NCBI GenBank assembly: GCA_031269205.1
Contig: JAISZM010000163.1
Location: forward strand, 1 to 47,885
Direction of reading: 5' to 3'
DNA: 47,885 nucleotides
Origin: Eubacteriales Family XIII. Incertae Sedis bacterium
Lineage (GTDB): Bacteria > Bacillota > Clostridia > Peptostreptococcales > Anaerovoracaceae
This document shows positions 5,884-34,837 of this stretch, in pieces (the stretch's first letter is position 1; each line of letters begins with the position of its first letter). Both the position numbers and the translations under genes were made by a program. The notes under the pieces were generated by a model. The model did not search any database, was not told the origin of the DNA, and was given only the letters and a program-made list of their open reading frames with translations.

Positions 5884-5906
5884 GTGGAAGAAAGAAGCCC
5901 ATGCGC

Positions 5907-14093: not shown

Positions 14094-14160
14094 CGGAGGG
14101 CGTTTTCCTTTCGCTCCTATGATACCACATCCACAACGTTATGCAAATAAGGACGGTAAA

Positions 14161-14216
14161 CTTGCAAACGATGACATTACGCACGGACGCGGGCGTGCAT
14201 ATAATATGTTTGCAAG
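14161..14216 (+). promoter_or_regulatory. rhaB promoter region: a perfect 9-bp inverted repeat CTTGCAAAC...GTTTGCAAG bracketing a TATAAT box (14200-14205)
   Basis: Read directly from the sequence. The -35 is poor (TTACGC), as expected for an activator-dependent promoter. Confidence 0.35.
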
Positions 14217-14254
14217 TATGCGGAGAAGGCGGCGAGCGGGCCGCTGTGGAGGAG

Positions 14255-15688: not shown

Positions 15689-16949
15689 CATGAGCGCGAA
15701 GATACAGGCGAACTACGAAATGGCCAAAGAAGCCTACTCCGCCGCGGGCGTCGACGTGGACAAGGCCGTGGAGACCCTCGGGGATTACCGCATATCCATG
15801 CACTGCTGGCAGGGTGACGACGTCATGGGCTTCGACCACGACGGTCCGCTGACGGGCGGCATCCAAACGACGGGCGACTATCCGGGCAGGGCGAGGACAC
15901 CCGATGAACTCATGTCCGATCTCGACAAGGCGTACAGCCTTATAGGCGGCAGACACCGACTGAATTTGCACGCGAGTTACGCGATTTTCAAGAACGGTTT
16001 TCACGACCGTGACGCGTTAGAGCCTTCCGACTTCTCTGCGTGGGTGGATTACGCGAAGGATCGCGACCTCGGACTCGATTTCAACCCGACATATTTTTCG
16101 CACGAAAAGGCGCGGCAGTACACGATGTCTGACCCGGATCCCGCCATCCGCGATTTTTGGGTGGAACACAGCAAGGCGTGTGTCAGGATAGCGCGGTATT
16201 TCACCGAGAGCCTTGACTCACACTGCCTGCTGAACGTGTGGATACCCGACGGCGCCAAGGACATCCCCGCGGACAGGCTCGGCCCGCGCGAGCGCTTCGC
16301 CGAGTCAATGGACCGGATGTTGGCCGAGCCGCACGACAGAGACAAGGTGTACGTCTCGATCGAGTCGAAGGTATTCGGGATCGGTATGGAATCCTATACC
16401 GTGGGTTCCGCCGAGTTCGGATTATGCTACGCCGCGTCGCGCGGCATACTGCCGCTCATGGACAATGGCCACTACCACCCGACGGAGTCCGTCGCTGACA
16501 AAATATCGTCAGCCCTGTTGATCTTTGATAAAATAGCACTGCACGTCACGCGTCCCGTCCGCTGGGACAGCGACCACGTGGTTCGCTATGACGACGAGAC
16601 GCGCGAGATAGCGAAGGAGATCGTGACGTGCGGAAGGGACAGGATACTCCTCGGCACGGACTGGTTCGACGCGAGCATCAACCGCGTCGCGGCGTGGGTC
16701 GTCGGTATGCGAAACTTCCAAAAGGCGTTGCTGTCGGCTCTGCTGACGCCAAGAGAGGAACACAAGCGTCTGCAGGACGAAGGCAGGTATACGGAATTGT
16801 TCATGAAGCAGGAGGAGTTGAAGACATTGCCTTTCGGCGCGGTATGGGATATGTTCTGCGAACGCTCGGGCGTACCCACCCGTGACGCTTGGTACAACGA
16901 GGTAGTCGCGTACGAGCGGGATGTATTGTCAAAGAGGGACGCAACATGA
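15675..16949 (+). CDS. rhaA: L-rhamnose isomerase
   Basis: ANYEMAKEAYSAAGVDVDKAVE...ISMHCWQGDDV matches the RhaA N-terminus. AGGAGG lies 8 nt before the ATG at 15675. Confidence 0.92.
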   Translation: MRPTDMSAKIQANYEMAKEAYSAAGVDVDKAVETLGDYRISMHCWQGDDVMGFDHDGPLTGGIQTTGDYPGRARTPDELMSDLDKAYSLIGGRHRLNLHASYAIFKNGFHDRDALEPSDFSAWVDYAKDRDLGLDFNPTYFSHEKARQYTMSDPDPAIRDFWVEHSKACVRIARYFTESLDSHCLLNVWIPDGAKDIPADRLGPRERFAESMDRMLAEPHDRDKVYVSIESKVFGIGMESYTVGSAEFGLCYAASRGILPLMDNGHYHPTESVADKISSALLIFDKIALHVTRPVRWDSDHVVRYDDETREIAKEIVTCGRDRILLGTDWFDASINRVAAWVVGMRNFQKALLSALLTPREEHKRLQDEGRYTELFMKQEELKTLPFGAVWDMFCERSGVPTRDAWYNEVVAYERDVLSKRDAT

Positions 16950-17278
16950 GAAAATATCTATGCGTGATCGAGGTCAAGGCTGAATGCCGCGACGATTATA
17001 TCGCTCTTCACAAGGCGCCGTGGCGCGAGATGCTCGAGGCGATCAGAGACGCGGGCTACGTCAATGAGGCCATCTGGTACTACAAGAACCAGAGCATCAT
17101 CTACCTCGAGTGCCCGGACGATACGACGCATGAGGAATGCGACGCGCGGCTCAGAGCCTCGGATGTCTGCAAGCGATGGGATGTGACGGTCTGCCCGTGG
17201 CTCGCGGCCGATCCCGTCATGGCGCCGAAGATATTCGACCTGAGCCAACAGCTCGGCGAAGGGCTGAAAGAAGATTGA
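16946..17278 (+). CDS. rhaM: L-rhamnose mutarotase
   Basis: About 110 aa from the ATG that overlaps the rhaA stop (ATGA). YIALHKAPWREMLEAIRDAGYVNEAIWY is typical of the RhaM/RhaU family. Confidence 0.85.
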   Translation: MRKYLCVIEVKAECRDDYIALHKAPWREMLEAIRDAGYVNEAIWYYKNQSIIYLECPDDTTHEECDARLRASDVCKRWDVTVCPWLAADPVMAPKIFDLSQQLGEGLKED

Positions 17279-17298
17279 GCCTGTCGCGGGAGACAGGC
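17279..17298 (+). terminator. Hairpin GCCTGTC-GCGGGA-GACAGGC directly after rhaM, with a weak T-rich tail
   Basis: 7-bp perfect GC-rich stem seen in the sequence. No clean U-tract. Confidence 0.35.
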
Positions 17299-17374
17299 CA
17301 TGTTATTGGTTCATTGATAGGAAACGTCAATGGTGGCGCGGCGCCCAAACGGCGCAGATGTTGTGGAGGAGTAA

Positions 17375-18526
17375 TTGAACAGTAGAGAAAGGGTTCTGAG
17401 AGCTTTCAGGGTGAAGGAGGGAATGCCGGATCGCATACCCGTCCAGTTCGATTTGTGCAGGTCTTTACAGGATCATTTTGCGGACGAACTCGGCCTCGAG
17501 TCAAAGTACACGAACAACCTGTTCGAGGACGTGACCTACAGGATCAGCGGCAACGAGATCAGGCTCGCCCTCGGGAGCGAGGTCGTCGTCGTCGGCGCTT
17601 CGGAGAGTGCGTCGTTCACGCCGGAGCGGTTCGACGACGGCACGTGGCTGAACGAATACAAGATGCGAATGAGGCAGGGCGACATATACGTGGAGGTCAC
17701 GGAGTACCCGCTCGCGAGCGCGCGGACGCGCGCCGACATAGACGCTTACGAGTGGCCCGACGCGGGCGATCCGTCGCGTTACACGGACGCCGAGGAACTC
17801 ATCGCAAAGTACGGGAACGACTACTTTATCATCGGCGACATCGAGGTCACGATACTCTCGCTCGCGCAGCAGCTCGTGGGCATGGAGAAGCTGCTTATGG
17901 ACATGGCGCTCGAAGAGGAGTACGTCCCGTACCTGTTCGAAAAATGCGAGGCGTTCCAGACGAAGGTCGGACTTGAACTGGTGAAACGCGGCGTCGACGC
18001 GGTATGGGTCGGGGACGACTTCGGCTCCCAACAAAGTCTCCTGTTCTCGCCAGATATGTTCAGGCGCCTGTTGAAAGAACATTACACGCGCCAGGTGCGG
18101 ACACTGAAGGCCGCCAAGAAAACGCTGATTGAGGACGCGCGGCATAGACCTGATCAGCGTGTCCATGAGTCTGAACTCGTCATGATACTGCATTCCGACG
18201 GAGCGGTGAAGATGCTGCTTGACGATATCAAGGACATCGGTTTCGACGTGTTCAATCCCGTACAGCCCGGTGTGCCCGGTCATTCTCCGCGCGAGATCGA
18301 GGACGAGTATGGCGACAAGTTCGCGTTCTGGGGCGGCATCGACCAACAGTACCTGATGCCGAACGGCTCGGACGAGGAACTCGAGGCCGACATCAAGGGA
18401 AAATGCGAAACGCTGGGGGAGGGCGGCGGCTACATGATTGCGCCCGCCCACATCATACAGTCTGACGTTTCGCCGGAGCGAGTGAAGTTTTTCATAGAGA
18501 TGTGCAGAAAGCACGGAGAATACTGA
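17375..18526 (+). CDS. Uroporphyrinogen decarboxylase (URO-D)/MtaA-family methyltransferase-like protein (URO-D1)
   Basis: 383 aa. TTG start 5 nt after GGAGGAG. N-terminus RERVLRAFRVKEGMPDRIPVQFD and the ...ILHSDGAV..., FNPVQP, GGGYMIAPAH blocks are typical of the family. The stop overlaps the ABC ATPase start (TGATG). Confidence 0.75.
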   Translation: MNSRERVLRAFRVKEGMPDRIPVQFDLCRSLQDHFADELGLESKYTNNLFEDVTYRISGNEIRLALGSEVVVVGASESASFTPERFDDGTWLNEYKMRMRQGDIYVEVTEYPLASARTRADIDAYEWPDAGDPSRYTDAEELIAKYGNDYFIIGDIEVTILSLAQQLVGMEKLLMDMALEEEYVPYLFEKCEAFQTKVGLELVKRGVDAVWVGDDFGSQQSLLFSPDMFRRLLKEHYTRQVRTLKAAKKTLIEDARHRPDQRVHESELVMILHSDGAVKMLLDDIKDIGFDVFNPVQPGVPGHSPREIEDEYGDKFAFWGGIDQQYLMPNGSDEELEADIKGKCETLGEGGGYMIAPAHIIQSDVSPERVKFFIEMCRKHGEY

Positions 18527-20022
18527 TGGAAGAGGTGCTCAGGCTCAAAAACATAGTCAAGACGTTCCCAGGGGTACTCGCGCTCGACGATATGAATTTC
18601 GACCTGAGGAAGGGGGAGATTCACGCCATATGCGGCGAGAACGGAGCGGGCAAATCCACGCTCATGAAGATAGTCACAGGCGTCTACAAACAGGACTCGG
18701 GGGAGATACTTTTGGGCGGCGAACCCGTCGTGTTCGAAGATCCGAACGAGGCTTTCGCGAAGGGCGTCGCGATCATCTATCAGGAGACGAGCCTCTTTGA
18801 GGAGATGACGATACTCGAGAACATCTTCCTCGGCCACGAATACGTGAAGAAGGTTGGTCCGCTCACCGTCATCGACTACGCGGGGATGAGGAAGGAGGCG
18901 CTTGAAATATTCAAGGTCATGGACATCGACCTCGATCTCGACGAGCGCGCGAAGAATCTCGGCATGGCGAGCAAGCAGATGGTGGAAATAGCGAAGGCGC
19001 TGTCGCACCACAGCAAGATATTCATTCTTGACGAGCCGACCGCGTCGCTGACGCAGCGCGAGGTGGAGGCTCTGTTCAATATCGTGCGCTCGCTCAGGGA
19101 TCAGGGTGTCGCGATAGCCTACATCAGCCACCGGCTCGAAGAGATATTCGAGCTCTGCGACCGCGTCACGGTCATCCGTGACGGCAAATACATTTCGACG
19201 AAGGACGTCACGACTACAAACAAGGATGAACTCGTCGCCGACATGGTCGGACGCAGCATGGACAATTATTACCCGAAGGCCGACGTGGAGATAGGCGGCG
19301 AACTGATAAGGGTGGAGCGCCTGAATCAGGAAGGCGTACTGAGCGATATCAATTTTCATATCAACAAGGGTGAGATCGTGGGCTTCGCGGGACTTGCCGG
19401 GGCGGGACGCACGGAACTCGCGCTCGCGCTCTGCGGTTTTACGAAGATAGCTTCCGGGGATATCTACATAGAGGGTCGCAAGGCGAGGATACGCAATTAC
19501 CGCGATGCGATGAACGCCGGTTTCGTGTACGTCTCGGAGGATCGCGGCAAGTTCGGCCTCGTCATAGAGATGAGCGTGAAGGAGAATATCACCATGCCTC
19601 AACTGCGCAACGTGAGCAGAGGCGTCTTTCTCGACAACGAGAAGGAACTCGCGCTCGCGGGACGCTTTATCGAGGAGTTCGACATCAGATGCCCGGAGCC
19701 GGATTTCCTGACAGAGAATCTGTCCGGCGGCAATCAGCAGAAGGTGTCCGTGTCGAAGGCCATCGCCATCGCTCCGAAGCTGCTCTTTCTCGACGAGCCG
19801 ACACGCGGCGTCGATGTCGGGTCGAAGGCCGAGATACATGGCATAGTCAGCGCGTTGGCTCAGCGCGGCGCGACGATATTCATGATAAGTTCCGAGATGC
19901 CCGAGCTCATCGGCATGTGCGACCGCATATATATCATGAAGAATGGCACGATAGCGGGCGAGGTGAGCAGGGCTGAGGCGACGCAGGAGAAAATCCTGAA
20001 GGTCGCGTTGCACATGGACTGA
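18526..20022 (+). CDS. Sugar ABC transporter ATP-binding protein (two fused ABC domains, RhaT/RbsA-like)
   Basis: Two Walker A motifs (GENGAGKST, GLAGAGRTE), two signature motifs (MASKQMVEI / LSGGNQQKV) and two Walker B motifs (ILDEPT, LFLDEPT). Confidence 0.92.
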   Translation: MEEVLRLKNIVKTFPGVLALDDMNFDLRKGEIHAICGENGAGKSTLMKIVTGVYKQDSGEILLGGEPVVFEDPNEAFAKGVAIIYQETSLFEEMTILENIFLGHEYVKKVGPLTVIDYAGMRKEALEIFKVMDIDLDLDERAKNLGMASKQMVEIAKALSHHSKIFILDEPTASLTQREVEALFNIVRSLRDQGVAIAYISHRLEEIFELCDRVTVIRDGKYISTKDVTTTNKDELVADMVGRSMDNYYPKADVEIGGELIRVERLNQEGVLSDINFHINKGEIVGFAGLAGAGRTELALALCGFTKIASGDIYIEGRKARIRNYRDAMNAGFVYVSEDRGKFGLVIEMSVKENITMPQLRNVSRGVFLDNEKELALAGRFIEEFDIRCPEPDFLTENLSGGNQQKVSVSKAIAIAPKLLFLDEPTRGVDVGSKAEIHGIVSALAQRGATIFMISSEMPELIGMCDRIYIMKNGTIAGEVSRAEATQEKILKVALHMD

Positions 20023-20037
20023 CGGGAGGTTTTTGGC

Positions 20038-21084
20038 ATGGAGCAAACGTCTCTGAGACAGGCCCCTGACGGCAAGGGGAAATTCAAGAAAATGCTCACG
20101 ACGGAGTTCTATCTCCTCGTGTTTCTCGTCGCCATCCTCGTGATGATGAGGATTGCGGCGCCGGACTTTTACTCGCTGAACACGATCATGACCGTGCTTA
20201 ACTATTTCAGCTATCTGCTAATAGCGGCCATCGGCATGAACCTCATCATCATCACGTCGAATATCGATGTCGCGGCTGGCGCTATCATGTCCGTTGTGGC
20301 CATTGTCATCGCCTTTGTCGGTAAGACGGGCGCGCCGTTGCCTGTGTTCATGGCCGTGGGCATGGTGGTGGGTCTGGTTCTCTCGTGGGTGAACGGGCTT
20401 TTCATCACGAAGCTGAAGATACCGGCCATCGTCGCGACGCTCGCGACGACGCAGCTTTTCGTCGGGGCGTTGCCTCTGGTTGTCGAGGGTTCCATCTATG
20501 ACCTGCCCGCGAGTTTCACCTGGCTCGCGTTCCGCGCGAAACTCTTCGGGGCGCTGCCCGCGAGCGTCGTGTTCGCCGCGGTCATAACCGTCGGGTTCAT
20601 GCTCTTCATGCGCTACTCGAGATTTTCAAAAAAACTTTACGCGGTCGGCAACAACAAGTACGCCGCGACTTTGACGGGCATCAACGTGAACAAGGTGATG
20701 ATACTTGCCTTCGTCATAGCGGGTCCGCTCTACGGCATAGCGGGTACGATCATCGCGACGGGCGGGCAGCGCGTCACGACCACGATGGCGAACGGGTTCG
20801 AGATGACGCTCATAGCGGCCGTCGTGCTCGGCGGCACCAGCATCGCGGGCGGCAGCGGAAAGATCATAGGGACCGTGCTCGGGGCTTTCATCCTGTCGCT
20901 TATCACCCCTGCGATGAACTACATCGGCATGAGTTCCGACTGGTCGGACGCGGTCATGGGCGGCATCATACTGCTCGCTGTCGTCGTCGCGTCGATCAGC
21001 ACGCTTACGAAGAAAAAGAAGACGATTGTTGTTCCGGACGCGGTCGTGTCCGCGTCGGCGTCATCGTCGGGGGAGGTGAAGTAG
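20038..21084 (+). CDS. Sugar ABC transporter permease (RbsC/RhaP-like)
   Basis: 348 aa polytopic membrane protein with ...IDVAAGAIM... and LGGTSIAGGSGKI motifs typical of the RbsC family. Confidence 0.88.
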   Translation: MEQTSLRQAPDGKGKFKKMLTTEFYLLVFLVAILVMMRIAAPDFYSLNTIMTVLNYFSYLLIAAIGMNLIIITSNIDVAAGAIMSVVAIVIAFVGKTGAPLPVFMAVGMVVGLVLSWVNGLFITKLKIPAIVATLATTQLFVGALPLVVEGSIYDLPASFTWLAFRAKLFGALPASVVFAAVITVGFMLFMRYSRFSKKLYAVGNNKYAATLTGINVNKVMILAFVIAGPLYGIAGTIIATGGQRVTTTMANGFEMTLIAAVVLGGTSIAGGSGKIIGTVLGAFILSLITPAMNYIGMSSDWSDAVMGGIILLAVVVASISTLTKKKKTIVVPDAVVSASASSSGEVK

Positions 21085-21085
21085 C

Positions 21086-22120
21086 ATGGCAGACGGCATG
21101 GAAACACTCGCGACGCCAAAGGTGAAAAAGAGGTTCGGCGTAAACTTCAATATCGCGCTCATCCTCATACTCATCGCGCTCATTGCTGTCATCGGGACGG
21201 TCAACCCGACCTTTGTGACGTACAATTACCTGATGGCGGTCGTAGTGAAGAACATCATGGAGATCGGTCTCATGGCGCTGCCGATGACGCTCATCGTCAT
21301 CACGGCGGGCATCGATCTGTCCGTCGGATCGATCATGATATTCTCGGCTATCGCGGGAGGCATGGCTGCCGCGTCCATGGGCGACGGCATGGGAGTGATC
21401 GTCACTCTGCTGGTGGGCGCGGGCTGCGGACTCGTGAACGGACTCGTCATAGTGAAACTGAAAATCAACGCGCTCATAACGACGCTCGCGACATTTTTTC
21501 TGTTCCGCGGAATAGCGAAGGGCATCACTCACGGCGACAGCGTGTACTCGTACGACTTCACGACGTTCGCCGGCAACACGGACATAAAGGGCGTACCCCT
21601 CGTCCTCATCGTATTCATCGCCGCCGCGATCATCTTCACCTTGCTGTTGTCGAAGACGGGATTCGGGCGCAGTCTCTACGCGCTCGGGATGAACGAGAAC
21701 GCGACGAGGTATTCCGGTATCAACGCGGACAGGACGCTGATCATCATCTACATCATCTCGGGCGTCGTCTGCGCGATCGCGGCCTTCTTCTATCTCGGTC
21801 GCTTCACGAGCGTCAAGTTCGACGTGGCGAACAGCATGAACCTGAAGGTGGTTACGGTCATCGTACTCGGCGGCACAAGCATCCTTGGCGGCGTCGGCGA
21901 TATGAGGGGGACGATCATCGCCATCTTCATTATAGCCGTGTTGAACAGCGGCCTCACCGTCATGGACATACCCATCGATGTGCAGACGATCATACAGGGT
22001 ACGGTTCTCATCATATCGCTCATCGTGTATTCGATACTCGGCGAGCGCGCGAAGAAGCGCCGCGTCATAGAGGTGAGCAAGGAGGACGAGCCGAGGCTCG
22101 TCGACAAGGCTCCGGCCTGA
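21086..22120 (+). CDS. Sugar ABC transporter permease (RbsC/RhaQ-like)
   Basis: 344 aa paralog of the previous gene (GIDLSVGSIM, LGGTSILGGVGDM). Confidence 0.88.
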   Translation: MADGMETLATPKVKKRFGVNFNIALILILIALIAVIGTVNPTFVTYNYLMAVVVKNIMEIGLMALPMTLIVITAGIDLSVGSIMIFSAIAGGMAAASMGDGMGVIVTLLVGAGCGLVNGLVIVKLKINALITTLATFFLFRGIAKGITHGDSVYSYDFTTFAGNTDIKGVPLVLIVFIAAAIIFTLLLSKTGFGRSLYALGMNENATRYSGINADRTLIIIYIISGVVCAIAAFFYLGRFTSVKFDVANSMNLKVVTVIVLGGTSILGGVGDMRGTIIAIFIIAVLNSGLTVMDIPIDVQTIIQGTVLIISLIVYSILGERAKKRRVIEVSKEDEPRLVDKAPA

Positions 22121-22259
22121 TGTATCTTTTACGGCTCGCGGCCAGCGGTCTGTCGCAGAAGACACCTTGCCGCGCCGCGCGCCGTTTGAAGATAGGATAG
22201 GAAGGAAGTTATTGGAGAAGTTATAGAGGTAAAAGGTAGTTAAGTAAAAGGAGGAAGAC

Positions 22260-23432
22260 ATGATAAGGAAGAAGAGATTTACATTGGTATTGGTTATCGC
22301 TCTCGCGGTTGTGGTCGCTTTCGCGTTCGGCGCGTGCGGTGGCGGAGAACAGCCGGCCGAAGAGCCTCCGGCCGACACCCCAACCGAGGAACCCCCGGTG
22401 GAAACAGAGACGGAATCGGACGACGTGGAGCCGGCGGCGGTCAAGGTGACAATCGCGATGTTGCCGAAGTTCAAAGGTGAGAACTACTTCGATGCTGTCA
22501 AAGTAGGCGCTGAGGAAGCGGTTGCGGAACTGGTGGGCGAAGGCGCCGACGTGGAACTGCTCTACGATGGCCCTCCGCAGAACGACGCGACAAACCAGAA
22601 TCAGGTCAACATCCTCGAGGGATGGATCGCTCAGGGCGTGAACGCGATACTCGTATCGCCGAACGATCCGACGGCCATCGCTCCCACGCTGAAGAAGGCG
22701 ATGGAAGGCGGCATCAAGGTGCTGACGTTTGACGCGGACGCCGATCCCGACGCGCGCGACCTGTTCATCAATCAGGGTTCCTACGACGCCATCGGCAGCG
22801 GCATGGTCAAGGCCGTCGCGAGCAAGCTGACGGAGAAGGGCTACGGCCCGGACAAGACGGCCAATCTCGGCATCGTGTCGTCAGCCAAGACGGACGCCAA
22901 CCAGAACGCGTGGCTCGACGCAATCAAGGCGCTCATAGCGACCGACGAGTATAGCTGGCTGAAGATCGCGAACGAGGAGACGGACGTCTACTATCCGGGT
23001 CCGGACGAGACCGAGACGCAGAAGCAGTCGGGTACGCTGATCTCGAGGATGGGCGACGGCGCCGACCAGATCCAAGCGGCCATCGGCCTGACCTCCATGG
23101 CGACGCCGGCGCTCGGCGCGCAGTACGAGTCCGCGGCTTCCAAGCCGGATGCGACGAAGGTCACGATGACGGGCCTCGCCACACCGAACGCCCTGAAGGA
23201 TTACATCAAGAACGACGCTAATCCGCTTGACACGGGCGTCCTCTGGAACTGCATGGATCTCGGCTATCTGTCTGTTGAGGCCGCGTATCAGTACGCGTCC
23301 GGAACGATAACGCCGGAGTCGACCACGATGACGACTTCGCGCCTCGGAGAGAGAGAAATCGCCGACAAGGTCATCCTGCTCGGAGATGCGCTCATCTTCG
23401 ATAAGGCCAACATCGACGAGTTCAACTATTGA
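22260..23432 (+). CDS. Lipoprotein sugar-binding protein of the ABC transporter (Peripla_BP_4 / RhaS-like)
   Basis: Signal peptide with lipobox AFGAC, an acidic Pro/Glu-rich linker, then a PBP type I fold (KVTIAMLPKFKGENYFDAV...). Strong AAGGAGG SD after a 139-nt purine-rich spacer. Confidence 0.8.
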   Translation: MIRKKRFTLVLVIALAVVVAFAFGACGGGEQPAEEPPADTPTEEPPVETETESDDVEPAAVKVTIAMLPKFKGENYFDAVKVGAEEAVAELVGEGADVELLYDGPPQNDATNQNQVNILEGWIAQGVNAILVSPNDPTAIAPTLKKAMEGGIKVLTFDADADPDARDLFINQGSYDAIGSGMVKAVASKLTEKGYGPDKTANLGIVSSAKTDANQNAWLDAIKALIATDEYSWLKIANEETDVYYPGPDETETQKQSGTLISRMGDGADQIQAAIGLTSMATPALGAQYESAASKPDATKVTMTGLATPNALKDYIKNDANPLDTGVLWNCMDLGYLSVEAAYQYASGTITPESTTMTTSRLGEREIADKVILLGDALIFDKANIDEFNY

Positions 23433-23472
23433 CGGAGGAGCCGGTTCGGCAGGATCGGTTTATCCGCTCATC

Positions 23473-23501
23473 GAAGGGCGCCCGTAAACAGGGCGCTCTT
23501 C
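23473..23501 (+). terminator. Hairpin GAAGGGCGCCC-GTAAACA-GGGCGCTCTTC downstream of the SBP gene
   Basis: 11-bp stem with one mismatch. No U-tract. Confidence 0.35.
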
Positions 23502-23561
23502 AGTATAGTGTATCCGGCATGGACGACGACCTGGCGGTGGAAGTCCGCTCCTCCTCGATTT

Positions 23562-23579
23562 TTCGTACAATCCGTACTA
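23562..23579 (+). promoter_or_regulatory. Copy A of the shared 18-nt element TTCGTACAATCCGTACTA, upstream of the URO-D2/corrinoid protein operon
   Basis: Identical 18-mer on the minus strand at 35727-35744, upstream of cooC/acsA. There is a partial copy at 41534-41552. All three have the same orientation relative to the downstream genes. Confidence 0.5.
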
Positions 23580-23639
23580 AAAAGTTCGACATAAATCGCT
23601 CCAAACGTCCGATTGAAAGCGCGTGGCATGGATTGTTTT

Positions 23640-23650
23640 TGTGATAAAAT
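23640..23650 (+). promoter_or_regulatory. Extended -10 promoter element TGTGATAAAAT upstream of URO-D2
   Basis: TRTGn + TAAAAT geometry. The same 11-mer recurs at 47260-47270. Confidence 0.35.
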
Positions 23651-23694
23651 CGATAACAGCCTATAGTAGTCTTTGGTGTTTAAGGAGGTGAGTT

Positions 23695-24954
23695 ATGGCG
23701 AATATGCAGGAATTGTATGACGCAAGACTGAAGAGGGTCGCGGACGCGGTTCAGCTTATCGAACCTGATCGGGTGCCGATCGTGCCGGTATTTCAGGCTT
23801 TCCCGGTGTATTACGCGAGGGAAAAGACGAATGTGCAGTATACCATCAAGGATCTGTTGGAAGACTGGAACAAGACCGCCGACGTCTATGACGTCTTCTA
23901 CGAGCATTTTAAACCGGATCTCGGTTGGGATCCGATCTTGTTTTTTCCGACTCCGTATATGGAGAGTAGCGGCATCACTTGGTTCAGGTGGCCGGGCAAG
24001 CATTTCGACGATACCATGACGATGTACCAGTACATCGAAGGCGACTATATGAAGGCCGACGAGTATGTCGAAGCGACGCGTGACCTGACGAAATTCATGA
24101 TGAACAAATGGATACCGCGCAGTTTCGCGAATCTGCAGGGCATGGCGAAGATCGACTTCCGCAACGCGATGTGGTTCGGCCATATGGGCGAGTTTGCCGC
24201 CTTCTCCGACCCGGAGGTCATCGAGACGTTCGAGACGCTCGTCAAGACGGGAAAGGTGCTGCTTGACTGGTTCACCTTCCTCGGCGGGTATCAGGCGCGC
24301 ATGAAGGAGAAGTTTGGCATTCCGCCGCTCTACGCGAGTTTTGCCTACGCGCCTTTCGACATGATAGGCGACAGTATGCGCGGCACGACCGAGATACTCA
24401 TGGATATGTACGACCGTCCGGACGAACTCCTCGCTATGCTCGACGTCGTGACGGACAACGCGATAGCGGACACGATAGCGGGTAGCCAAGGCAAGGCTGT
24501 CCCCTACGTCTATTGGTGGCTGCACAAAGGCGTCGACGATTTTATGTCGAACAAGCAGTTCGAGAAATTCTATTGGCCCTCGCTGCGCAAACATATACTG
24601 GGCGTCATTGACGCGGGCTTCACTCCCGTGATCTACGTCGAGGGCGCGTACAACAACCGTCTCGAATACCTGAAGGAAATCCCTCCGAAGAAGGCAGTCT
24701 TCAACTTTGAGTACACCGACATGGCCACTGCGAAGAAGGTGCTCGGCGGGCACTCGTGCATCGCCGGCAACGTGAAGGCATTCACGCTCAGCTACGGCTC
24801 GAAGGAGGACACGGTCAACGAGGTCAAGCGACTCATCGACACCTGCGCGCCCGGAGGCGGATACATCCTCGATACAGGGACGATGGTCGACGACGCGAAA
24901 GTCGAGAATATCGAGGCGATGTTTGAAACGGTAGAAACTTACGGCAGAAGATAG
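23695..24954 (+). CDS. URO-D-family protein (URO-D2), candidate substrate:corrinoid methyltransferase (MT-I)
   Basis: 419 aa. AAGGAGG SD. N-terminus ...RLKRVADAVQLIEPDRVPIVP and C-terminus ...GGGYILDTG are typical of the URO-D/MtaA superfamily. A corrinoid protein gene follows. Confidence 0.7.
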   Translation: MANMQELYDARLKRVADAVQLIEPDRVPIVPVFQAFPVYYAREKTNVQYTIKDLLEDWNKTADVYDVFYEHFKPDLGWDPILFFPTPYMESSGITWFRWPGKHFDDTMTMYQYIEGDYMKADEYVEATRDLTKFMMNKWIPRSFANLQGMAKIDFRNAMWFGHMGEFAAFSDPEVIETFETLVKTGKVLLDWFTFLGGYQARMKEKFGIPPLYASFAYAPFDMIGDSMRGTTEILMDMYDRPDELLAMLDVVTDNAIADTIAGSQGKAVPYVYWWLHKGVDDFMSNKQFEKFYWPSLRKHILGVIDAGFTPVIYVEGAYNNRLEYLKEIPPKKAVFNFEYTDMATAKKVLGGHSCIAGNVKAFTLSYGSKEDTVNEVKRLIDTCAPGGGYILDTGTMVDDAKVENIEAMFETVETYGRR

Positions 24955-25105
24955 GGCGCGGTCGGTTGCGCGGCGCGCAACGGGGAGTTCCCCTCGCCGC
25001 TCTGTTATCTGTTATATGGTATAGCCAGAGAGTGTCTGTCAGGCGCGTTGAAGCGTAAGGCGTGACAGAGACAACCTTTATGAGGCAAGAAGGGAGAAGG
25101 ACAGC

Positions 25106-25735
25106 ATGGATTTTCAGGAACTTATCGAATCGGTGAAGAAGGGCGACGCGAACACTGTGGCCACCTTGGTGCAACAGGGTCTGGACGAAAATGTGGATCC
25201 GCAGAGCATCCTCGACGATGGTCTGCTTAAGGCGATGAACGAGATTGGCGTGAAGTTCAAGAACAACGAGGTCTTTGTCCCCGAAGTTCTTATCGCGGCG
25301 CGCGCGCTGAACGCGGGTACGGCGGTGCTCAAGGAGAACAAGGTCGGCGATAACTCCAATTCGGCCGGCAAGGTTATCATCGCGACCGTCTCGGGCGATC
25401 TGCACGATATAGGCAAGAATCTCGTGAAAATGATGATGGAGAGCGTGGGCTTCGAAGTCATAGACCTCGGTGTGGACGTGACCGCGGACAAGATCGTAGA
25501 GGCTGTTAAGAGCAGCAACGCTGACATCGTGGCTCTGTCCGCGCTTCTGACTACGACGATGGCGTACCAGCGCACGGTCGTTGAGGCACTGAAGGAAGCC
25601 GGCGTACGCGACAAAGTGAAGGTCATGATAGGTGGCGCGCCCACGACACAGGCGTTTTGCGACGACATAGGGGCTGACGGGTATACGGCCGACGCGCCGA
25701 GCGCGGCCGACAAGGCGCGCGAACTGCTCGCGTGA
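25106..25735 (+). CDS. Corrinoid (B12-binding) protein, MtaC/MtbC/O-demethylase CP type
   Basis: 209 aa. N-terminal helical B12-binding_2 domain followed by a Rossmann B12 domain with a DxHxxG motif (SGDLHDIGKN) and ...ALSALLTTTM.... Confidence 0.88.
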   Translation: MDFQELIESVKKGDANTVATLVQQGLDENVDPQSILDDGLLKAMNEIGVKFKNNEVFVPEVLIAARALNAGTAVLKENKVGDNSNSAGKVIIATVSGDLHDIGKNLVKMMMESVGFEVIDLGVDVTADKIVEAVKSSNADIVALSALLTTTMAYQRTVVEALKEAGVRDKVKVMIGGAPTTQAFCDDIGADGYTADAPSAADKARELLA

Positions 25736-25754
25736 TTCTCGCGCGAGCGCGGCG

Positions 25755-26558
25755 TTACGGTTGCCCGATATCCCCGTTGCGGAATGCCGTCAGGTAGTTC
25801 ATGCTGTAGTTGTCCTTGCCGAGCAGAGCTTCGGTGGCGAATATGGCCGCGCGCATATCCTCGGCGGTCGGATCTATGATTGCGCTGTCCATGCCGGTGG
25901 ACATAGCCAGCGTCAGGAACACCCTGTTGATTGATCTGCGGTAGGGCAATCCGTAGCTGATATTGCTCAGTCCGGATGTGATGTGTACGTCGGGATACCT
26001 TTCTTTGATGATACGCACCGCGTCGCCGAAGCTCGCGAACGCGTCGCTCGTCGTCGCGAGCGTCGTGACGAGCGGATCGATAAAGAGGCGCTCCTGCGCA
26101 ATTCCCATCGCCGCGGCCTTCTCTATGATGTCGCCGGCAATCGTCGCTTTGATTTCCGGGTCGGTCGGTATGCCGTTCTCGTCGTCGCACGTGAGAGCTA
26201 CGACACTCCACTCCGTGTCCGCTATCACGGGGAAGAGTTTCTCGCATTTGTCGCCCTCGCCGGAAACCGAGTTGATGAGTCCGGGTTTTTTCGCGAGGGG
26301 AATCATGTCGATGATGGTCGATACGTCCGAACTGTCGATCGACAGGGGAGTATCGGTCGTTTCCTGAATGATCCCGATCAGCCATTCCAGCGTCTCGTGT
26401 TCGATCCCCGGATCGGTACCCGCGCATACGTCTATGTAGGCGGAGCCGTACTTCGACTGCTTTTCCGCAAGTTCCCTGATGAAGCCGTCGTCCTTATCCT
26501 CGATCGCTTTGAGGGTAGACGGAATAAAGCCGTTGATTTTTTCGCCGATAATTATCAT
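25755..26558 (-). CDS. Pterin-binding methyltransferase (MtrH/AcsE-like), candidate methyl-corrinoid:tetrahydrofolate methyltransferase (MT-II)
   Basis: The ORF track extends to 26756. I prefer the ATG at 26558 (MIIIGEKINGF...), which sits 7 nt after GGAGGA. Blocks IDVCAG, SIDSS, INSVSGE and GLSNISYGLP are typical of the pterin-binding DHPS-like fold. Confidence 0.75.
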   Translation of the reverse strand: MIIIGEKINGFIPSTLKAIEDKDDGFIRELAEKQSKYGSAYIDVCAGTDPGIEHETLEWLIGIIQETTDTPLSIDSSDVSTIIDMIPLAKKPGLINSVSGEGDKCEKLFPVIADTEWSVVALTCDDENGIPTDPEIKATIAGDIIEKAAAMGIAQERLFIDPLVTTLATTSDAFASFGDAVRIIKERYPDVHITSGLSNISYGLPYRRSINRVFLTLAMSTGMDSAIIDPTAEDMRAAIFATEALLGKDNYSMNYLTAFRNGDIGQP

Positions 26559-26638
26559 GGTAATTCCTCCGTTCCTTTCATGTGGTTTGCGCTGTTCCCG
26601 GGCAGTCTTTGGATACGGCGCGACTTTGGTGAACCCGC

Positions 26639-27424
26639 CTAGATATCCAGGTACGAGTCCGCGTACAGCGAACGATTCATTATTATCTCCGCTGTCTTGA
26701 TCGTGCCCATGAGACGCTTGTCGTTCGGGTTCAGTATGGCCGATGTCAGGCCACACTCGATGGCCATAGCCGTCAGTACGCTATCCACTATCGGACGCAC
26801 TTCCTTCGGCATACCGTTGGACGCGTTCGAGAGTCCGGCCGTCGAGTTGAGTCCCATGTCGGAGAGTTGCCTGATGAACTGGAGGTACTCGACCTGTTTT
26901 TCCTGCATTCCCTTGATCACAAGCGTGAGCGGATCAAACCAGAGATCGCTGGGTTCCATGCCGAGTTCCATAGCGTGCTCGAGCATCTCCTGACAGTATT
27001 GCATACGTTCGTCATTATCGCGCGGTACGCCCTGCTTGGAACAGAGAGCGATGGCTATCGCGTCGTTTGCGGCCGCAAGATCGATATAGTCGAGTCTGTC
27101 GCCGGCGTCCGCGGAGTTGACGATGGGCTTGCCCTTTGTGCGGTCGTAGACGGAGATGCCGGCTTCGATCGCCTTTCGGTTGGCCGTGTCGAGCGCGAGC
27201 GGTACGTTGTCGAGGTTCTCCTGCAACAGTTTGACGCCCCATTTCATGATGTCCTCGCCGTCCCTTTCGGCGGGGCCGATGTTGAGATCCAGATACGTGG
27301 CGCCCGAATCAAGCTGCTCTTTCCCGCGCGCGAGCAGAGGCTCCGGGTCGCGGTTTGCGAGCGCTTCCCTGATGACGGGCGAGATACAGTGTATCCGCTC
27401 GCCTATGATAATAAATTTGTCCAT
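26639..27424 (-). CDS. acsE: Methyltetrahydrofolate:corrinoid/iron-sulfur protein methyltransferase
   Basis: 261 aa with IIGERIHC..., LDLNIGP, LDTAN, NSA and GLSNASNGMP. Its position directly downstream of acsC/acsD supports the call. Confidence 0.85.
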   Translation of the reverse strand: MDKFIIIGERIHCISPVIREALANRDPEPLLARGKEQLDSGATYLDLNIGPAERDGEDIMKWGVKLLQENLDNVPLALDTANRKAIEAGISVYDRTKGKPIVNSADAGDRLDYIDLAAANDAIAIALCSKQGVPRDNDERMQYCQEMLEHAMELGMEPSDLWFDPLTLVIKGMQEKQVEYLQFIRQLSDMGLNSTAGLSNASNGMPKEVRPIVDSVLTAMAIECGLTSAILNPNDKRLMGTIKTAEIIMNRSLYADSYLDI

Positions 27425-27520
27425 AAATAGATCCCTCCGTTCATCCTTCCTTGAACCATGCCGCGCGGCGGCGCCAACGCTTCATGAAACCTTTTATCTA
27501 TCCGTTCTACGCTTCCCACC

Positions 27521-28855
27521 CTACGCCGCTTTAAACTCTTTCAGGAATTTCACGAGCGAAACCGCCTCGTTCGGCGCCACGACAATTTTCCAGCCCGGAA
27601 GGCTTTCCTCAAGCTCACCCTTTAGGACGGCGACCTTGCCCGGGATGAGTAGGTTTCGGTTCTTGATCTTCGATTCGATATCCTCTTCCTTGATGAACTT
27701 TGCGATGGAACCGGCCGAGAGTTTGCCCGCGGCCCACGCCGTCAGCACGGAATAACCGCCCGCGTCAGGTATGAGCAGGTTGACGGGTACGCCGGCGCGC
27801 TCGATCTCGCCCGAGACGATGAAGTACGTCAGCGCGAAGTCCACGGTCAGCGCGCAGAGGGAGTTTTCATCCGCGCCGTTGATGGGATATATGCCCACCT
27901 CGACCGTCATCGGCTTCTGGGGGTCGGTGAAGATGTTCTGCCGCAGACCGTAGAGGGGCAGAGCTTGGGCGTAGCTCATGCCGTCCATGACGATGATGCT
28001 CCCGTATTTGAGAATAAAGACGGAAGCGAGTGCGGTCTGCATACGGGCGTCACCGGGCGCGAGCGCGCTGACGTTGACTATCGAGGGGTAACCGAAACTG
28101 TGGTCGCCCGATTTCAGAGCGGCGCGCCTGATCTGCACGGCGTTCGCGAAGGCGTCCTTGACAGAGATAGCTCCGACGTCCAGCACGATATCCTTGACAC
28201 CCGCCTTCTCCACCTCCCGCACCGTGTCATACAGGGCGTCGAGATTGTCCGCCGTCACGCCGAGCGCTACGCCGTATTCCAGCGCGAGCGCCGCGAAAGT
28301 CTCATGATTGGACGGATTCGCGCCGTTCAGCAGGGGTTTCCCATCGGAGGTCGCCGCGAGCGCTTCCTTCGCCGCGTCCGCGTCTGTCGTCGCGAGCACG
28401 AGCGTCCTGCCCGCTGCCGAAACCTTTTTCGCCGCTTCGGCAAACGCCGCCTTGTCGCCGGAATATTCAAGATAGATGAGTTCCACGCACATACGCTCGC
28501 CGATGCGCTCATAATCTATCTTGCACGCGTGGGCTATGGTGGTATCCGCGGCGTCGGGAGCGGTACTGATCGCGAACAGGGGCTTGGATACGAACGTCTT
28601 GTCGTGGCGGAAGAGAACCGTCTCTCCTCCGAGGGCGTACTCCTCGTCTCTCGCGCCTATCCTGAACGATTTCATCGGTGGGGCGGTCGCTTCACCGAGA
28701 GCGTCGAGCGCTTCGGCCGACATATGCGGACATTTCTCTATCTGCACCGTACCCTGTGCGACCTTCATCGCGAAGGCCATACAGGTCGGCTGACCGCAGT
28801 CCTTGCAGTTTGTCTTTGGGGTGAGTTTGAAAATGTCTATTCCTTTTAGCGCCAT
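27521..28855 (-). CDS. acsC: Corrinoid iron-sulfur protein, large subunit
   Basis: 444 aa. N-terminal 4Fe-4S motif CKDCGQPTCMAFAMK....C. AAGGAGG SD. Confidence 0.9.
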   Translation of the reverse strand: MALKGIDIFKLTPKTNCKDCGQPTCMAFAMKVAQGTVQIEKCPHMSAEALDALGEATAPPMKSFRIGARDEEYALGGETVLFRHDKTFVSKPLFAISTAPDAADTTIAHACKIDYERIGERMCVELIYLEYSGDKAAFAEAAKKVSAAGRTLVLATTDADAAKEALAATSDGKPLLNGANPSNHETFAALALEYGVALGVTADNLDALYDTVREVEKAGVKDIVLDVGAISVKDAFANAVQIRRAALKSGDHSFGYPSIVNVSALAPGDARMQTALASVFILKYGSIIVMDGMSYAQALPLYGLRQNIFTDPQKPMTVEVGIYPINGADENSLCALTVDFALTYFIVSGEIERAGVPVNLLIPDAGGYSVLTAWAAGKLSAGSIAKFIKEEDIESKIKNRNLLIPGKVAVLKGELEESLPGWKIVVAPNEAVSLVKFLKEFKAA

Positions 28856-28882
28856 CTTTGGCCCTCCTTCTCTCAGATAGAG

Positions 28883-29833
28883 CTACGCGAGCGCGGCGAC
28901 CATATCCGCTATCGTTTTGACCGAAGCCGGATGCCTGAGTATGACCGCATCCGTACCGGCCGCGAGCGCGGCGGCGGCCGTCGATATCTCCATTTCGATA
29001 CCGCGCTCCTCACGCGGACCCCATTCCGGGAAATCGTCTTCGGAGACGACCGCTTCCTTGACGGCCCACGCGTCTTCCGCGACGGACGTGATGGACGGCA
29101 TCTGTAACGCGTCGTCGTTCTGCGATAGAGCGGCGAGCTTGACACGCTCTATCGTCGAAGATATGTATTCGAACCCGTAACCGGCCGCGGCCGCACCGAG
29201 GTTCATCACGTAGCTTCCGGGCTTTATGCCCATCTGCGCGATGAGTACGTTCAGTTGCTTCGCGAGATTGATATCGACAGAGGATTCGGCGCCGATCTTC
29301 TGGCCGTAGGCTGTGACGGCCGCGACCGCGATTCCCTTGTAGTTCTCCTCCTTCGCCGAGAGCAAAAGAACGTTCATCCCTTGTAATGCCTCGGCGACCT
29401 TGGGTATCAGTTCCTGATCCTTGTCCACATTGCCCGTTCCCTGTATCACTACCGGCTTGCCGCCGGCGGCAAGAGCCACGGCCACTTCCTTCGCGAGCGC
29501 GGCGGCGTCCTCAGATGTCGCGTTATCGCCGTTCGGGTCAGCGCTTTCGAGCACGAGACTCACGAAATCCGCGCCCGGCGCGGTACACGCCCTCGACGCG
29601 ATGTCCGACAAACTCTCAGCTCCGCTATAGAAAGCGCTGAGTTCCGGCAGACTGCGATCAGGACCTTTGTCGGAAATCTCTATGCCGACTAACGCCCGGT
29701 GTTTCGCCTGAGCGTCGAAATTGTACAACGGCAGAGTGTTCGCGCCGCCGAAAACGACGGACGCCCCTTCCGTTCCGAATTCGACTTCGGTGATGCTGGC
29801 GCCGAATACCTGTGGTTCTCGTTTGAAGGTCAT
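28883..29833 (-). CDS. acsD: Corrinoid iron-sulfur protein, small subunit
   Basis: I prefer the ATG at 29833 (MTFKREPQVF...), which sits 9 nt after AAGGAG. The ORF track extends to 29875. TIM-barrel-like sequence and acsC/acsB context. Confidence 0.88.
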   Translation of the reverse strand: MTFKREPQVFGASITEVEFGTEGASVVFGGANTLPLYNFDAQAKHRALVGIEISDKGPDRSLPELSAFYSGAESLSDIASRACTAPGADFVSLVLESADPNGDNATSEDAAALAKEVAVALAAGGKPVVIQGTGNVDKDQELIPKVAEALQGMNVLLLSAKEENYKGIAVAAVTAYGQKIGAESSVDINLAKQLNVLIAQMGIKPGSYVMNLGAAAAGYGFEYISSTIERVKLAALSQNDDALQMPSITSVAEDAWAVKEAVVSEDDFPEWGPREERGIEMEISTAAAALAAGTDAVILRHPASVKTIADMVAALA

Positions 29834-29920
29834 GCGATTTATTCTCCTTTTTGTGTTTGCCTGCTCTTTCCGCACCCGGCGACTGAGCAGGGCAGCGGAA
29901 CAATTATCTACCGGATATCC

Positions 29921-32050: not shown

Positions 32051-32084
32051 TATCCTACCCGTTCTTCTGTCAGAGGTAATTTCC

Positions 32085-32852
32085 TCATGACTCTATGCGC
32101 TCTTTTATAATATTGACTTCTTTCGCAAAGAGGCCGTCGGATGCGAGTGGCGATCCGCCCGCCTTGTCCGCCTCGACGACGCCGCCGCTGTAGCTGATAA
32201 ACCCGAGCAGATCCTCTTGCGGTACGCGCCCTGATATAAAAGCTCTGTCCGCGTCGTCAGTGACCTTGTTGCCGACGACGCTCACCCTTCTCACGCCGAG
32301 GTCGGTCGCGAGGGCGCGTATGCGCTCGTACGTCTGTATGCTGCGCGCGCCCGGTTCGACGACGGCGATGAACCGATCGACCATGCCCGCCGTGCCTCTG
32401 CCGAGATGTTCGATGCCGGCTTCCATATCCATGACGATCACATCGTCCGATTTCAACACGAGGTGAGAGACGACCCTCTTCAACATCACGTGTTCGGGAC
32501 AGACGCAACCGCCCCCTCCTGTCTCCACCGTTCCCATTACCAGAAGTTTTACCCCGTTCTTCTCGACCGCGAACCTGTCAGGGATGTCGTCAACCCTCGG
32601 ATTGATCTTGAAAAACTTCCCGTAATTTTCCCTGTCCGCGCCCGTGCGTTCCGCGATGAGACCGGACATATCCGCTATCGGCGTAATGTCCGCGACTTCG
32701 TCCTCAGTGAGACCGAGGGCGAGGCCGAGGTTTGCGTCGGGGTCGGCGTCCACGGCGAGTACGCGCCAGCCGTCCGCGGCGTACAACCGCGCCAGCGACG
32801 CCGCGAGCGTCGTCTTGCCTACTCCTCCTTTGCCGGTGACCGCTATCTTCAT
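32085..32852 (-). CDS. cooC: CooC/AcsF-type nickel-insertion ATPase (copy 1)
   Basis: I prefer the start MKIAVTGKGGVGKTT (P-loop). CxC nickel motif GGGCVCPEH. The ORF-track start at 32936 would overlap acsA. Confidence 0.9.
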   Translation of the reverse strand: MKIAVTGKGGVGKTTLAASLARLYAADGWRVLAVDADPDANLGLALGLTEDEVADITPIADMSGLIAERTGADRENYGKFFKINPRVDDIPDRFAVEKNGVKLLVMGTVETGGGGCVCPEHVMLKRVVSHLVLKSDDVIVMDMEAGIEHLGRGTAGMVDRFIAVVEPGARSIQTYERIRALATDLGVRRVSVVGNKVTDDADRAFISGRVPQEDLLGFISYSGGVVEADKAGGSPLASDGLFAKEVNIIKERIES

Positions 32853-32904
32853 GGATCGCTTTTCCTGTCGCGCGTCGTCGCGCTTCGCCTCTCTTTTCAA
32901 ATGT

Positions 32905-34827: not shown

Positions 34828-34837
34828 AACGTTGCTC

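Follow-up and report, generated by a model that had tools for sequence, protein, structure and literature searches.

Does a sugar locus of a Family XIII bacterium encode a corrinoid system that removes methyl groups from an imported carbohydrate? The question is raised by a 47,885-nucleotide (nt) stretch of contig JAISZM010000163.1 (the window), in which a rhamnose gene cluster is followed by genes for corrinoid-dependent methyl transfer and, convergent with these, by an operon for carbon monoxide dehydrogenase/acetyl-CoA synthase (CODH/ACS). A first-pass annotation had joined all of them into one pathway for an O-methylated deoxyhexose, with two proteins of the URO-D family (URO-D1 and URO-D2) at its center. 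We built a gene map from open reading frames (ORFs) and from Pfam and NCBIfam scans of the window, which resolved two separable modules side by side, not a single wired unit. Judged from its genes, module A (11904-23432) is a predicted rhamnose regulon comprising an aldolase, AraC, RhaB, RhaA, RhaM, URO-D1 and a RhaSTPQ-like transporter, and module B (23695-26558) reads as a canonical three-component corrinoid METHYLTRANSFERASE beside acs. The best-supported reading, which we regard as an even call, is that module B removes the methyl group of an imported, carbohydrate-like methyl ether and hands it to the adjacent ACS, the rhamnose module and URO-D1 being separate.

The corrinoid module beside acs

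Module B and the control region in front of it consist of the following features.

23473-23667, plus strand: intergenic control region, with a GC-rich hairpin (23473-23501), promoter-like hexamers (23623-23667) and then a strong ribosome-binding site
23695-24954, plus strand: URO-D2, putative substrate:corrinoid methyltransferase (MT-I) of the CdmB/MtvB/OdmB/MtoB branch, matching PDB entry 9rui
25106-25735, plus strand: corrinoid protein (CP), with Pfam B12-binding_2 and B12-binding domains and the sequence GDLHDIGK (motif DxHxxG)
25755-26558, minus strand: MT-II, predicted methylcorrinoid:tetrahydrofolate (THF) methyltransferase, pterin-binding, scoring 319 bits against NCBIfam PRK07535, above the cutoff of 259

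These genes give module B the composition of the three-component O-demethylase family (MT-I, CP and MT-II). Only one relative of URO-D2 has a solved structure, CdmB from Acetobacterium dehalogenans (9rui), to which it is 29% identical over 247 residues (E 4e-30). CdmB belongs to a branch of the UroD superfamily that includes the O-demethylase MT-I enzymes MtvB, OdmB, VdmB and MtoB and also several clades with unknown substrates (PMC13222342). No zinc motif was found in the URO-D2 sequence, and the metal-site residues of MtaA and their URO-D1 counterparts were absent from it. CP has the four-helix cap and Rossmann B12 domain of such corrinoid proteins; it matched 1y80 (E 1e-62) and the O-demethylase corrinoid protein of D. 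hafniense (4jgi; E 1e-35), and it scored 198-219 bits against the MtgC and pyl_corrinoid models. The MT-II gene starts with an ATG behind GGAGG, lies 80 nt downstream of acsE, is convergent with the CP gene and may be co-transcribed with acs. Its product was closest to the O-demethylase MT-II of D. hafniense (4o0q/4o1e/4o1f; E 6e-91), followed by AcsE-type methyltransferases (MeTr; E ~1e-37) and MtrH (E 0.003).

The URO-D2 gene starts 262 nt after the stop codon (23432) of SBP1, the substrate-binding protein (SBP) of module A. Because a hairpin and then promoter-like hexamers and a ribosome-binding site follow SBP1, URO-D2 and CP probably form a transcription unit of their own. The spacer between the two genes (24955-25105) is 151 nt long and carries GC-rich inverted repeats without an Rfam match; in homologs the spacer measures 13-66 nt. 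Across the entire window, no cobalamin riboswitch or other known RNA was detected at Rfam gathering thresholds.

The 262-nt gap, URO-D2 and the B12-binding protein with its intact DxHxxG motif had all been described correctly in the first-pass annotation. The last acs cistron had been called an extra MtrH/AcsE-like methyltransferase, of which the position and the pterin-binding character held and the MtrH likeness gave way to that with the D. hafniense MT-II.

URO-D2 relatives in sugar-type operons

Homologs of URO-D2 numbered 1368 proteins at E < 1e-5, mostly from Family XIII, other Clostridia and spirochaete metagenome-assembled genomes (MAGs), and a metagenome scan added 80 loci. Linkage to ATP-binding cassette (ABC) transporters was counted as CUT2 parts within 5 kb of MT-I, using the 26 informative loci (those with sufficient flanking sequence and an MT-I of 60% identity or more). 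CUT2 parts were present in 13 of them, and in L090, L098, L099, L109, L110 and L158 a permease gene on the same strand ends 29-80 nt upstream of MT-I. A rough estimate of ours, not backed by a computed control, puts the chance of finding a CUT2 system within 5 kb of a random gene in such a genome at only a few percent, against ~50% observed. Since the ABC-linked MT-I proteins are just 51-89% identical to one another, their occurrences are independent. The operons of URO-D2 relatives showed at least six distinct architectures, listed here in gene order.

Architecture 1 (L090, L148 and others): SBP, ABC, permease, MT-I
Architecture 2 (L087): LacI, SBP2-like, MT-I, MT-I, ABC ATPase, permease, SBP2-like
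Architecture 3 (L085): MT-I, CP, SBP2-like (56% identical to SBP2), MtaA-type MT-II
Architecture 4 (L088): CP, CP, MT-I, SBP2-like (76%), GFO/IDH/MocA
Architecture 5 (L092, L113): divergent SBP-ABC-permease and MT-I
Architecture 6 (L151): MT-I, CP, AP_endonuc_2, Zn-ADH, unknown 395-aa protein, AP_endonuc_2, ABC ATPase, permease, SBP, in a single string

The SBPs of L085, L087 and L088 were 53-76% identical to SBP2, a second binding protein of the window, and none of the MT-I-linked SBPs in the surveyed loci resembled SBP1 or RhaS. L171 and L172 encode SBP2-family SBPs (60-61% identical) followed by a catabolic cassette of the L151 type (54-73% identity), and no MT-I or CP was called in either. 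Such a cassette, with MT-I/CP in one case and without them in the other, is the pattern expected for a methylated derivative versus its parent carbohydrate. These results suggest that a corrinoid demethylase for an imported methylated carbohydrate, the general idea of the first-pass annotation, is plausible, because URO-D2 relatives recur with CUT2, LacI, GFO/IDH/MocA and isomerase-like genes and with SBP2-like SBPs; the tie to rhamnose and URO-D1 was left unsupported. A lack of URO-D/ABC recurrence in related genomes had been named beforehand as grounds for giving the idea up, and the linkage does recur.

A protein of ~400 aa was also seen repeatedly in the SBP2-linked cassette (L151 5682-6869, L171 13085-14311, L172 6040-7257 and L089 17279-18472; 33-82% identical). 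It was considered as a hidden URO-D relative and rejected, having no similarity to URO-D2 and no Pfam or NCBIfam match. The NCBI names of relatives (Clostridiales Family XIII, Treponema and Spirochaetaceae MAGs), together with the few JGI samples that dominate the metagenome matches, suggest a lignocellulose-degrading gut community as the habitat; these samples may be termite-gut data sets.

What the parts are, how they are arranged and that the MT-I clade is repeatedly linked to genes for sugar-type transport and catabolism is demonstrated. From this we infer an O-methylated carbohydrate as the methyl donor, be it a sugar, a sugar acid, a polyol or a cyclitol, methyl-rhamnose being one minor candidate. 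The further genes on which such a pathway would draw lie on the far side of MT-II.

26639-35659, minus strand: CODH/ACS operon, made up of the next seven genes
26639-27424, minus strand: acsE, NCBIfam CODH_ACS_meth at 485 bits
27521-28855, minus strand: acsC
28883-29875, minus strand: acsD
29921-32050, minus strand: acsB
32085-32936, minus strand: cooC
32905-34827, minus strand: acsA
34838-35659, minus strand: second cooC
38158-40155, plus strand: RACo-type reductive activator with an in-frame TAG at 39697-39699, aligned end to end with RACo (3zyy; E 8e-129)
40168-40845, plus strand: DUF3786 protein, directly after RACo
41743-42999, plus strand: SBP2, orphan CUT2-type carbohydrate-binding lipoprotein
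43152-43934, plus strand: DUF1638 protein, adjoining SBP2

An SBP2-type lipoprotein would capture the methylated substrate extracellularly, and a CUT2 ABC transporter would import it. By the established mechanism of such systems, URO-D2, acting as MT-I, would move the methyl group from the substrate to the Co(I) corrinoid protein, from whose CH3-Co(III) form MT-II would transfer it to THF. AcsE, the corrinoid iron-sulfur protein (CoFeSP) and ACS, all encoded next to module B, would carry methyl-THF on to acetyl-CoA, the RACo-type activator would rescue oxidized Co(II), and the demethylated product would enter GFO/IDH/MocA, isomerase and kinase-type catabolism.

The structure model of SBP2 (predicted local distance difference test, pLDDT, 88.7) had 50 top matches that were all SBPs for monosaccharides or polyols, and the nearest structures bind various furanoses, pyranoses and polyols. 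Pinitol or methyl-inositol was considered as its ligand and set aside as speculation, the GFO/IDH/MocA and IolE-like matches being weak and below cutoffs and the nearest structures binding varied sugars. SBP2 stands in a cluster (38158-43934) of RACo, DUF3786, a gap of ~900 nt, SBP2 and DUF1638, with no permease gene adjoining. The accessory genes around SBP2 are presumably typical neighbors of corrinoid methyltransferases.

Several observations weigh against a carbohydrate donor for module B. Alkoxides leave far less readily than phenolates; since URO-D2 also lacks metal-site residues, there is no ready explanation for how it would activate an alkyl methyl ether. Within the window, URO-D2 and CP lie outside any transporter operon, 17 kb separate them from SBP2, and a GFO/isomerase cassette is missing. 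Half of the informative loci had no ABC genes nearby, as in L086, where MT-I is solitary, and the genes of the survey came from a crude ORF picker applied to GC-rich DNA, so that some were missed. The in-frame TAG (39697-39699) splits an otherwise full-length RACo homolog, at a codon within a variable loop. A pyrrolysine reading of this codon was unsupported, given its place in the variable loop and the use of TAG as the normal stop in 9 of 37 ORF segments of the window that were examined; because TAG also ends those segments, the codon looks like a nonsense mutation or an assembly error, not recoding. Lying beside acs, RACo may serve CoFeSP instead of module B. The first-pass statement that all four parts are present, with an activator at 38158-40155, was correct as to the gene's presence and as to the canonical set of MT-I, CP and MT-II beside acs, and is not supported for the fourth part, given this in-frame stop and the possible CoFeSP role. 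Lastly, no member of the MT-I clade is known to act on a carbohydrate, the characterized ones using phenyl methyl ethers or haloalkanes (PMC13222342; PMC3727330).

The main rival to the carbohydrate reading is that URO-D2, CP and MT-II form an ordinary aromatic O-demethylase for lignin-derived phenyl methyl ethers, as MtvB, OdmB and the D. hafniense systems do, the sugar genes being coincidental or serving the uptake of something else, for example phenolic glycosides. We consider this unlikely, though it deserves serious weight. Every characterized O-demethylase MT-I relative uses methoxylated aromatics (PMC13222342; PMC3727330), the closest MT-II is that of the D. hafniense O-demethylase, and several URO-D2 homologs are solitary or accompanied by CP only. 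The separate transcription unit of URO-D2 and CP and the lack of conserved adjacency to the rha block in a related genome (L002) also fit it. However, an identity of just 29% to the nearest solved relative means that substrate specificity is not transferable, and SBP2-type proteins resemble binders of monosaccharides or polyols. The embedding of MT-I in CUT2 operons, on the same strand with short gaps, together with LacI, GFO/IDH/MocA and isomerase-like genes and in at least six architectures, is hard to square with a free aromatic substrate.

The rhamnose module and URO-D1

Module A and its features are as follows.

11904-13127, plus strand: class II aldolase, RhaD-like, resembling the aldolase half of RhaEW-type enzymes (Pfam Aldolase_II; N-terminal part of NCBIfam RhaD_aldol-ADH, E 1e-28)
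13116-14093, minus strand: AraC-family regulator (Pfam HTH_18, AraC_binding and Cupin_2), 80-83% identical in L001/L002
14141-15688, plus strand: rhaB (Pfam FGGY_N/C)
15642-16949, plus strand: rhaA (Pfam RhaA, 577 bits)
16889-17278, plus strand: rhaM (Pfam rhaM)
17279-17298, plus strand: hairpin directly 3' of the rhaM stop, with an 8-bp stem and a weak T tract
17375-18526, plus strand: URO-D1, of the URO-D/MtaA superfamily (Pfam URO-D, 78 bits)
18526-20022, plus strand: fused two-domain ABC ATPase, its start overlapping the URO-D1 stop
20038-21084 and 21086-22120, plus strand: two BPD_transp_2 permeases
22260-23432, plus strand: SBP1 lipoprotein (Peripla_BP_4), with the N-terminal lipobox motif AFAFGAC

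The transporter (18526-23432) has the architecture and rha synteny of RhaSTPQ, and its proteins are 82-89% identical in L001 and L002. The best PDB matches of SBP1 were rhamnose-binding proteins (4kvf, E 3e-38; also 5bq3), and its score against the RhaS model TIGR02637 (192 bits) was under the cutoff of 342. Module A would thus import L-rhamnose through the RhaSTPQ-like transporter and catabolize it with RhaM, RhaA, RhaB and the aldolase. The hairpin after rhaM is a possible partial terminator or processing site. Full synteny from the ORF at 10549 through SBP1 recurred only in two Family XIII MAGs, L001 and L002, in both of which the aldolase is kept with the rha genes. The ORF at 10549-11907 (452 aa) has no Pfam match and is 75-77% conserved 5' of the aldolase in these two MAGs, and because of this conserved position it is probably a member of the rhamnose regulon. 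Another ORF without a Pfam match lies at 7224-8468 (414 aa).

The module was laid out as the first-pass annotation had it: rhaB, rhaA and rhaM end at the hairpin, the URO-D1 stop overlaps the ATPase start (TGATG, 18524-18528), and the Pfam domains, the lipobox motif and the matches to rhamnose-binding proteins agree with a RhaSTPQ-like set of two permeases and a lipoprotein SBP. The proposed wiring of the corrinoid genes to deoxyhexose uptake failed. URO-D2 and CP have their own promoter-like site, no MT-I-linked SBP is RhaS-like, and in L002, the closest rha/ABC-block relative extending past SBP1 (URO-D1 80% identical), SBP1 is followed by an unrelated RicinB/NlpC-P60 gene on the opposite strand; no URO-D2, CP or acs adjoins the L002 block.

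We examined the family of URO-D1 by scanning species-representative genomes, which yielded 325 matching stretches encoding a relative, and by clustering the neighbors in 80 loci. Members of the family are ~367 aa long and 60-85% identical across at least six phyla, occurring among others in Clostridia (Family XIII, Christensenella and Faecalicatena), Bacteroidota (Prolixibacteraceae and Alistipes), Verrucomicrobiota, Planctomycetota, Latescibacterota and Calditrichota. The commonest neighbors in the 80 loci were GH106 alpha-L-rhamnosidase (22), RhaM (18), GH78 rhamnosidase (10), AraC (9) and sulfatases (8). On a Bacteroidota chromosome the relative lies between GH106, GH78 and sulfatase genes, and in one Clostridia genome genes for AraC, an AraA/FucI-like isomerase, an SBP, an ABC ATPase, a permease, URO-D1 and RhaM adjoin one another. 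In Christensenella tenuis (L003, 10001-18236), genes for an SDR, glycerate kinase, an FAH-family hydrolase and RhaM are followed by AraC and then by URO-D1 with three more URO-D paralogs; genes for LacI regulators and a RhaI-like isomerase are scattered between these, and no corrinoid protein is near. Three to four divergent URO-D-family paralogs were also observed in sugar-catabolic regions of Alistipes (L025, L026 and L028), again with no corrinoid protein near. Sugar metabolism may make broader use of URO-D-fold enzymes, a theme so far unexplored.

A corrinoid-protein homolog was found within 10 kb of the URO-D1 relative in 1 of the 80 loci, L067 of a Bacteroidales MAG (3900-17150). There, a 2032-aa ORF is followed 2 nt later by the URO-D1 ortholog and then by GH106 (split over two ORFs), a homocysteine-methyltransferase domain of the MetH type, a corrinoid protein and a URO-D resembling MtaA, which could be a split methionine-synthase-like module. 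Because of this corrinoid protein, a small probability of a methyl-transfer role for URO-D1 stays. In the window, the CP gene is 6.6 kb from URO-D1 and in a separate transcription unit. The placing of URO-D1 in a corrinoid toolkit is thus not borne out, its family being rhamnose-associated in Bacteroidota, Verrucomicrobiota, Planctomycetota and Clostridia.

URO-D1 starts with a TTG behind GGAGGAG, and the resulting N-terminus (MNSRERVL) agrees with the family. Pfam URO-D matched only the C-terminal part of URO-D1 and of URO-D2, which are remote kin (hhalign probability 93%, 19% identity, C-terminal half). Against TIGR01463, URO-D1 scored 58.8 bits (cutoff 235.4) and against MtaA_Meth 33 (cutoff 400); with the hemE equivalog model, URO-D1 gave no match and URO-D2 25 bits (cutoff 303). 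The AlphaFold model of URO-D1 (pLDDT 82) had M. mazei MtaA (4ay8) as its top Foldseek match, at E 1.2e-13. The fold search was tried as a test of methyltransferase versus decarboxylase and dropped: MtaA and HemE structures scored equally (E ~1e-13), so that the fold alone is non-discriminating. At the zinc-ligand positions of MtaA (4ay7; His-x-Cys...Cys), URO-D1 has His273-x-Asp275...His359, invariant in 14 family members, which is a probable metal site as judged from the alignment. The segment reads ILHSDG in URO-D1 and HCDG in most family members; HSDG had been noted correctly in place of H-x-C, and it is Asp275, not Ser274, that aligns with the zinc cysteine of MtaA. A 17-residue insertion within KTLIEDARHRPDQRVHESE (residues ~246-268, ~18110-18170) sits just before the ILHSDG strand and is absent from the 13 other aligned members. 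URO-D1 fails three defining features of the MtaA type, namely the score, the zinc ligands and the corrinoid-protein partner. These results argue for URO-D1 as a predicted conserved accessory enzyme of the rhamnose pathway, with the MtaA fold and no sign of corrinoid-protein dependence. A literature search found nothing on URO-D-family proteins tied to rhamnose loci, rhamnosidase or RhaM.

The original model now appears improbable. In it, the RhaSTPQ-like transporter brings in methyl-rhamnose or methyl-fucose, whose methyl group is moved by URO-D1, URO-D2 or both to CP and by MT-II to THF, while the sugar flows into the Rha pathway. In its favor, all of its genes are physically contiguous, URO-D1 is translationally coupled to the ATPase and rhamnose-associated wherever it was found, its metal site with O/N ligands might serve to activate the oxygen of an ether, and the L067 string puts a URO-D1 ortholog and GH106 beside a corrinoid protein, a homocysteine-methyltransferase domain and a gene of the MtaA kind. 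Yet in 79 of the 80 URO-D1 loci a corrinoid protein is missing from the surrounding 10 kb, URO-D1 falls far under the MtaA cutoffs (59 versus 235 bits), the URO-D1/rha/ABC block stands without URO-D2, CP and acs in the closest relative extending past SBP1, and the MT-I-linked SBPs elsewhere include no RhaS-like one. A small non-carbohydrate donor (methanol, a halomethane, a methylated thiol or an amine derivative), with the SBP and transporter links reflecting co-regulated separate functions, is the least probable explanation: CdmB, the nearest solved relative of URO-D2, uses chloromethane and the best family models of CP are of the MtgC and pyl_corrinoid types, but small volatile donors can do without an importer that relies on a binding protein, and it is in operons for such importers that MT-I genes are found; moreover, ORF and family scans of the window found no MttB, MtaB or MtgB-type gene.

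Significance and comparison with known systems

Anaerobic O-demethylation is not known to extend beyond aryl methyl ethers, and no anaerobic demethylase is known for the carbohydrate methyl ethers of plants and algae, such as 4-O-methyl-glucuronate in xylan, the methylated sugars of pectin and the methyl-inositols. The literature searched held no report tying corrinoid methyltransferases to methylated sugars or cyclitols (pinitol, methyl-rhamnose or 4-O-methyl-glucuronate), in agreement with the earlier statement that no corrinoid-dependent sugar O-demethylase has been characterized. Rather tentatively, and somewhat short of an even chance, we propose that the URO-D2 clade is the first corrinoid O-demethylase family for aliphatic carbohydrate methyl ethers, acting on plant-cell-wall sugars, uronic acids or cyclitols imported by CUT2 transporters and feeding methyl-THF to acetogenesis, and separately that URO-D1 represents a pan-phylum family of MtaA-fold rhamnose metalloenzymes with an undescribed reaction. 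If true, the former would provide a new methyl source for acetogenesis through the Wood-Ljungdahl pathway in lignocellulose-degrading communities, extend Co(I) chemistry to alkoxide leaving groups and supply a gene marker, MT-I inside CUT2 operons. A carbohydrate substrate confirmed by biochemistry would be a notable extension of anaerobic methyl-group metabolism. URO-D1 matters independently, as a highly conserved enzyme in rhamnose-utilization loci of at least six phyla that is apparently undescribed in the literature searched.

Module A resembles RhaSTPQ with RhaBAM in that SBP1 is nearest to rhamnose-binding proteins, two permeases go with a fused ATPase, and the transporter is syntenic with rhaB, rhaA, rhaM, the aldolase and AraC. 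It differs by the URO-D-family gene placed between rhaM and the ATPase and translationally coupled to the latter, and by an SBP1 under the RhaS equivalog cutoff (192 versus 342 bits). With MtaA/MtbA, URO-D1 shares the fold, and the three zinc-ligand positions are filled by invariant potential metal ligands. These ligands are His-x-Asp...His, whereas MtaA has His-x-Cys...Cys; the score is 59 against a 235-bit cutoff, a corrinoid-protein partner is missing from 79 of 80 loci, and the URO-D1 family occurs in rhamnosidase clusters of Bacteroidota, Verrucomicrobiota and Planctomycetota.

Module B shares with the three-component O-demethylases (MtvABC, OdmABD, VdmB and that of D. hafniense) a UroD-superfamily MT-I, a small DxHxxG corrinoid protein, a pterin-binding MT-II, a gene of the RACo activator family and the predicted delivery of methyl-THF to the Wood-Ljungdahl pathway. 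It differs from them in that no solved member comes closer to its MT-I than 29% identity, its activator gene has an in-frame stop, and the URO-D2 clade is found with CUT2 sugar-type ABC and catabolic operons rather than aromatic-substrate genes. CdmBCA of Acetobacterium dehalogenans follows the same MT-I/CP logic, CdmB being the best solved match of URO-D2, and the CdmB crystal structure showed no metal, just as URO-D2 has no zinc motif in its sequence. CdmA, the MT-II of that system, is MtaA/MtqA-like and belongs to the UroD family, whereas the MT-II of the window is pterin-binding, and CdmB has hydrophobic tunnels for haloalkanes, substrates that would need no SBP-dependent import (PMC13222342). 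The sole carbohydrate demethylase found in the literature search was the P450 for 6-O-methyl-D-galactose of marine Bacteroidota (PMC6292453), in which removal of the O-methyl group from a carbohydrate likewise lets catabolism proceed. The P450 reaction is oxygen-dependent and oxidative and releases formaldehyde, with an unrelated fold and cofactor, whereas the system of the window would work without oxygen and keep the methyl group in the form of methyl-THF.

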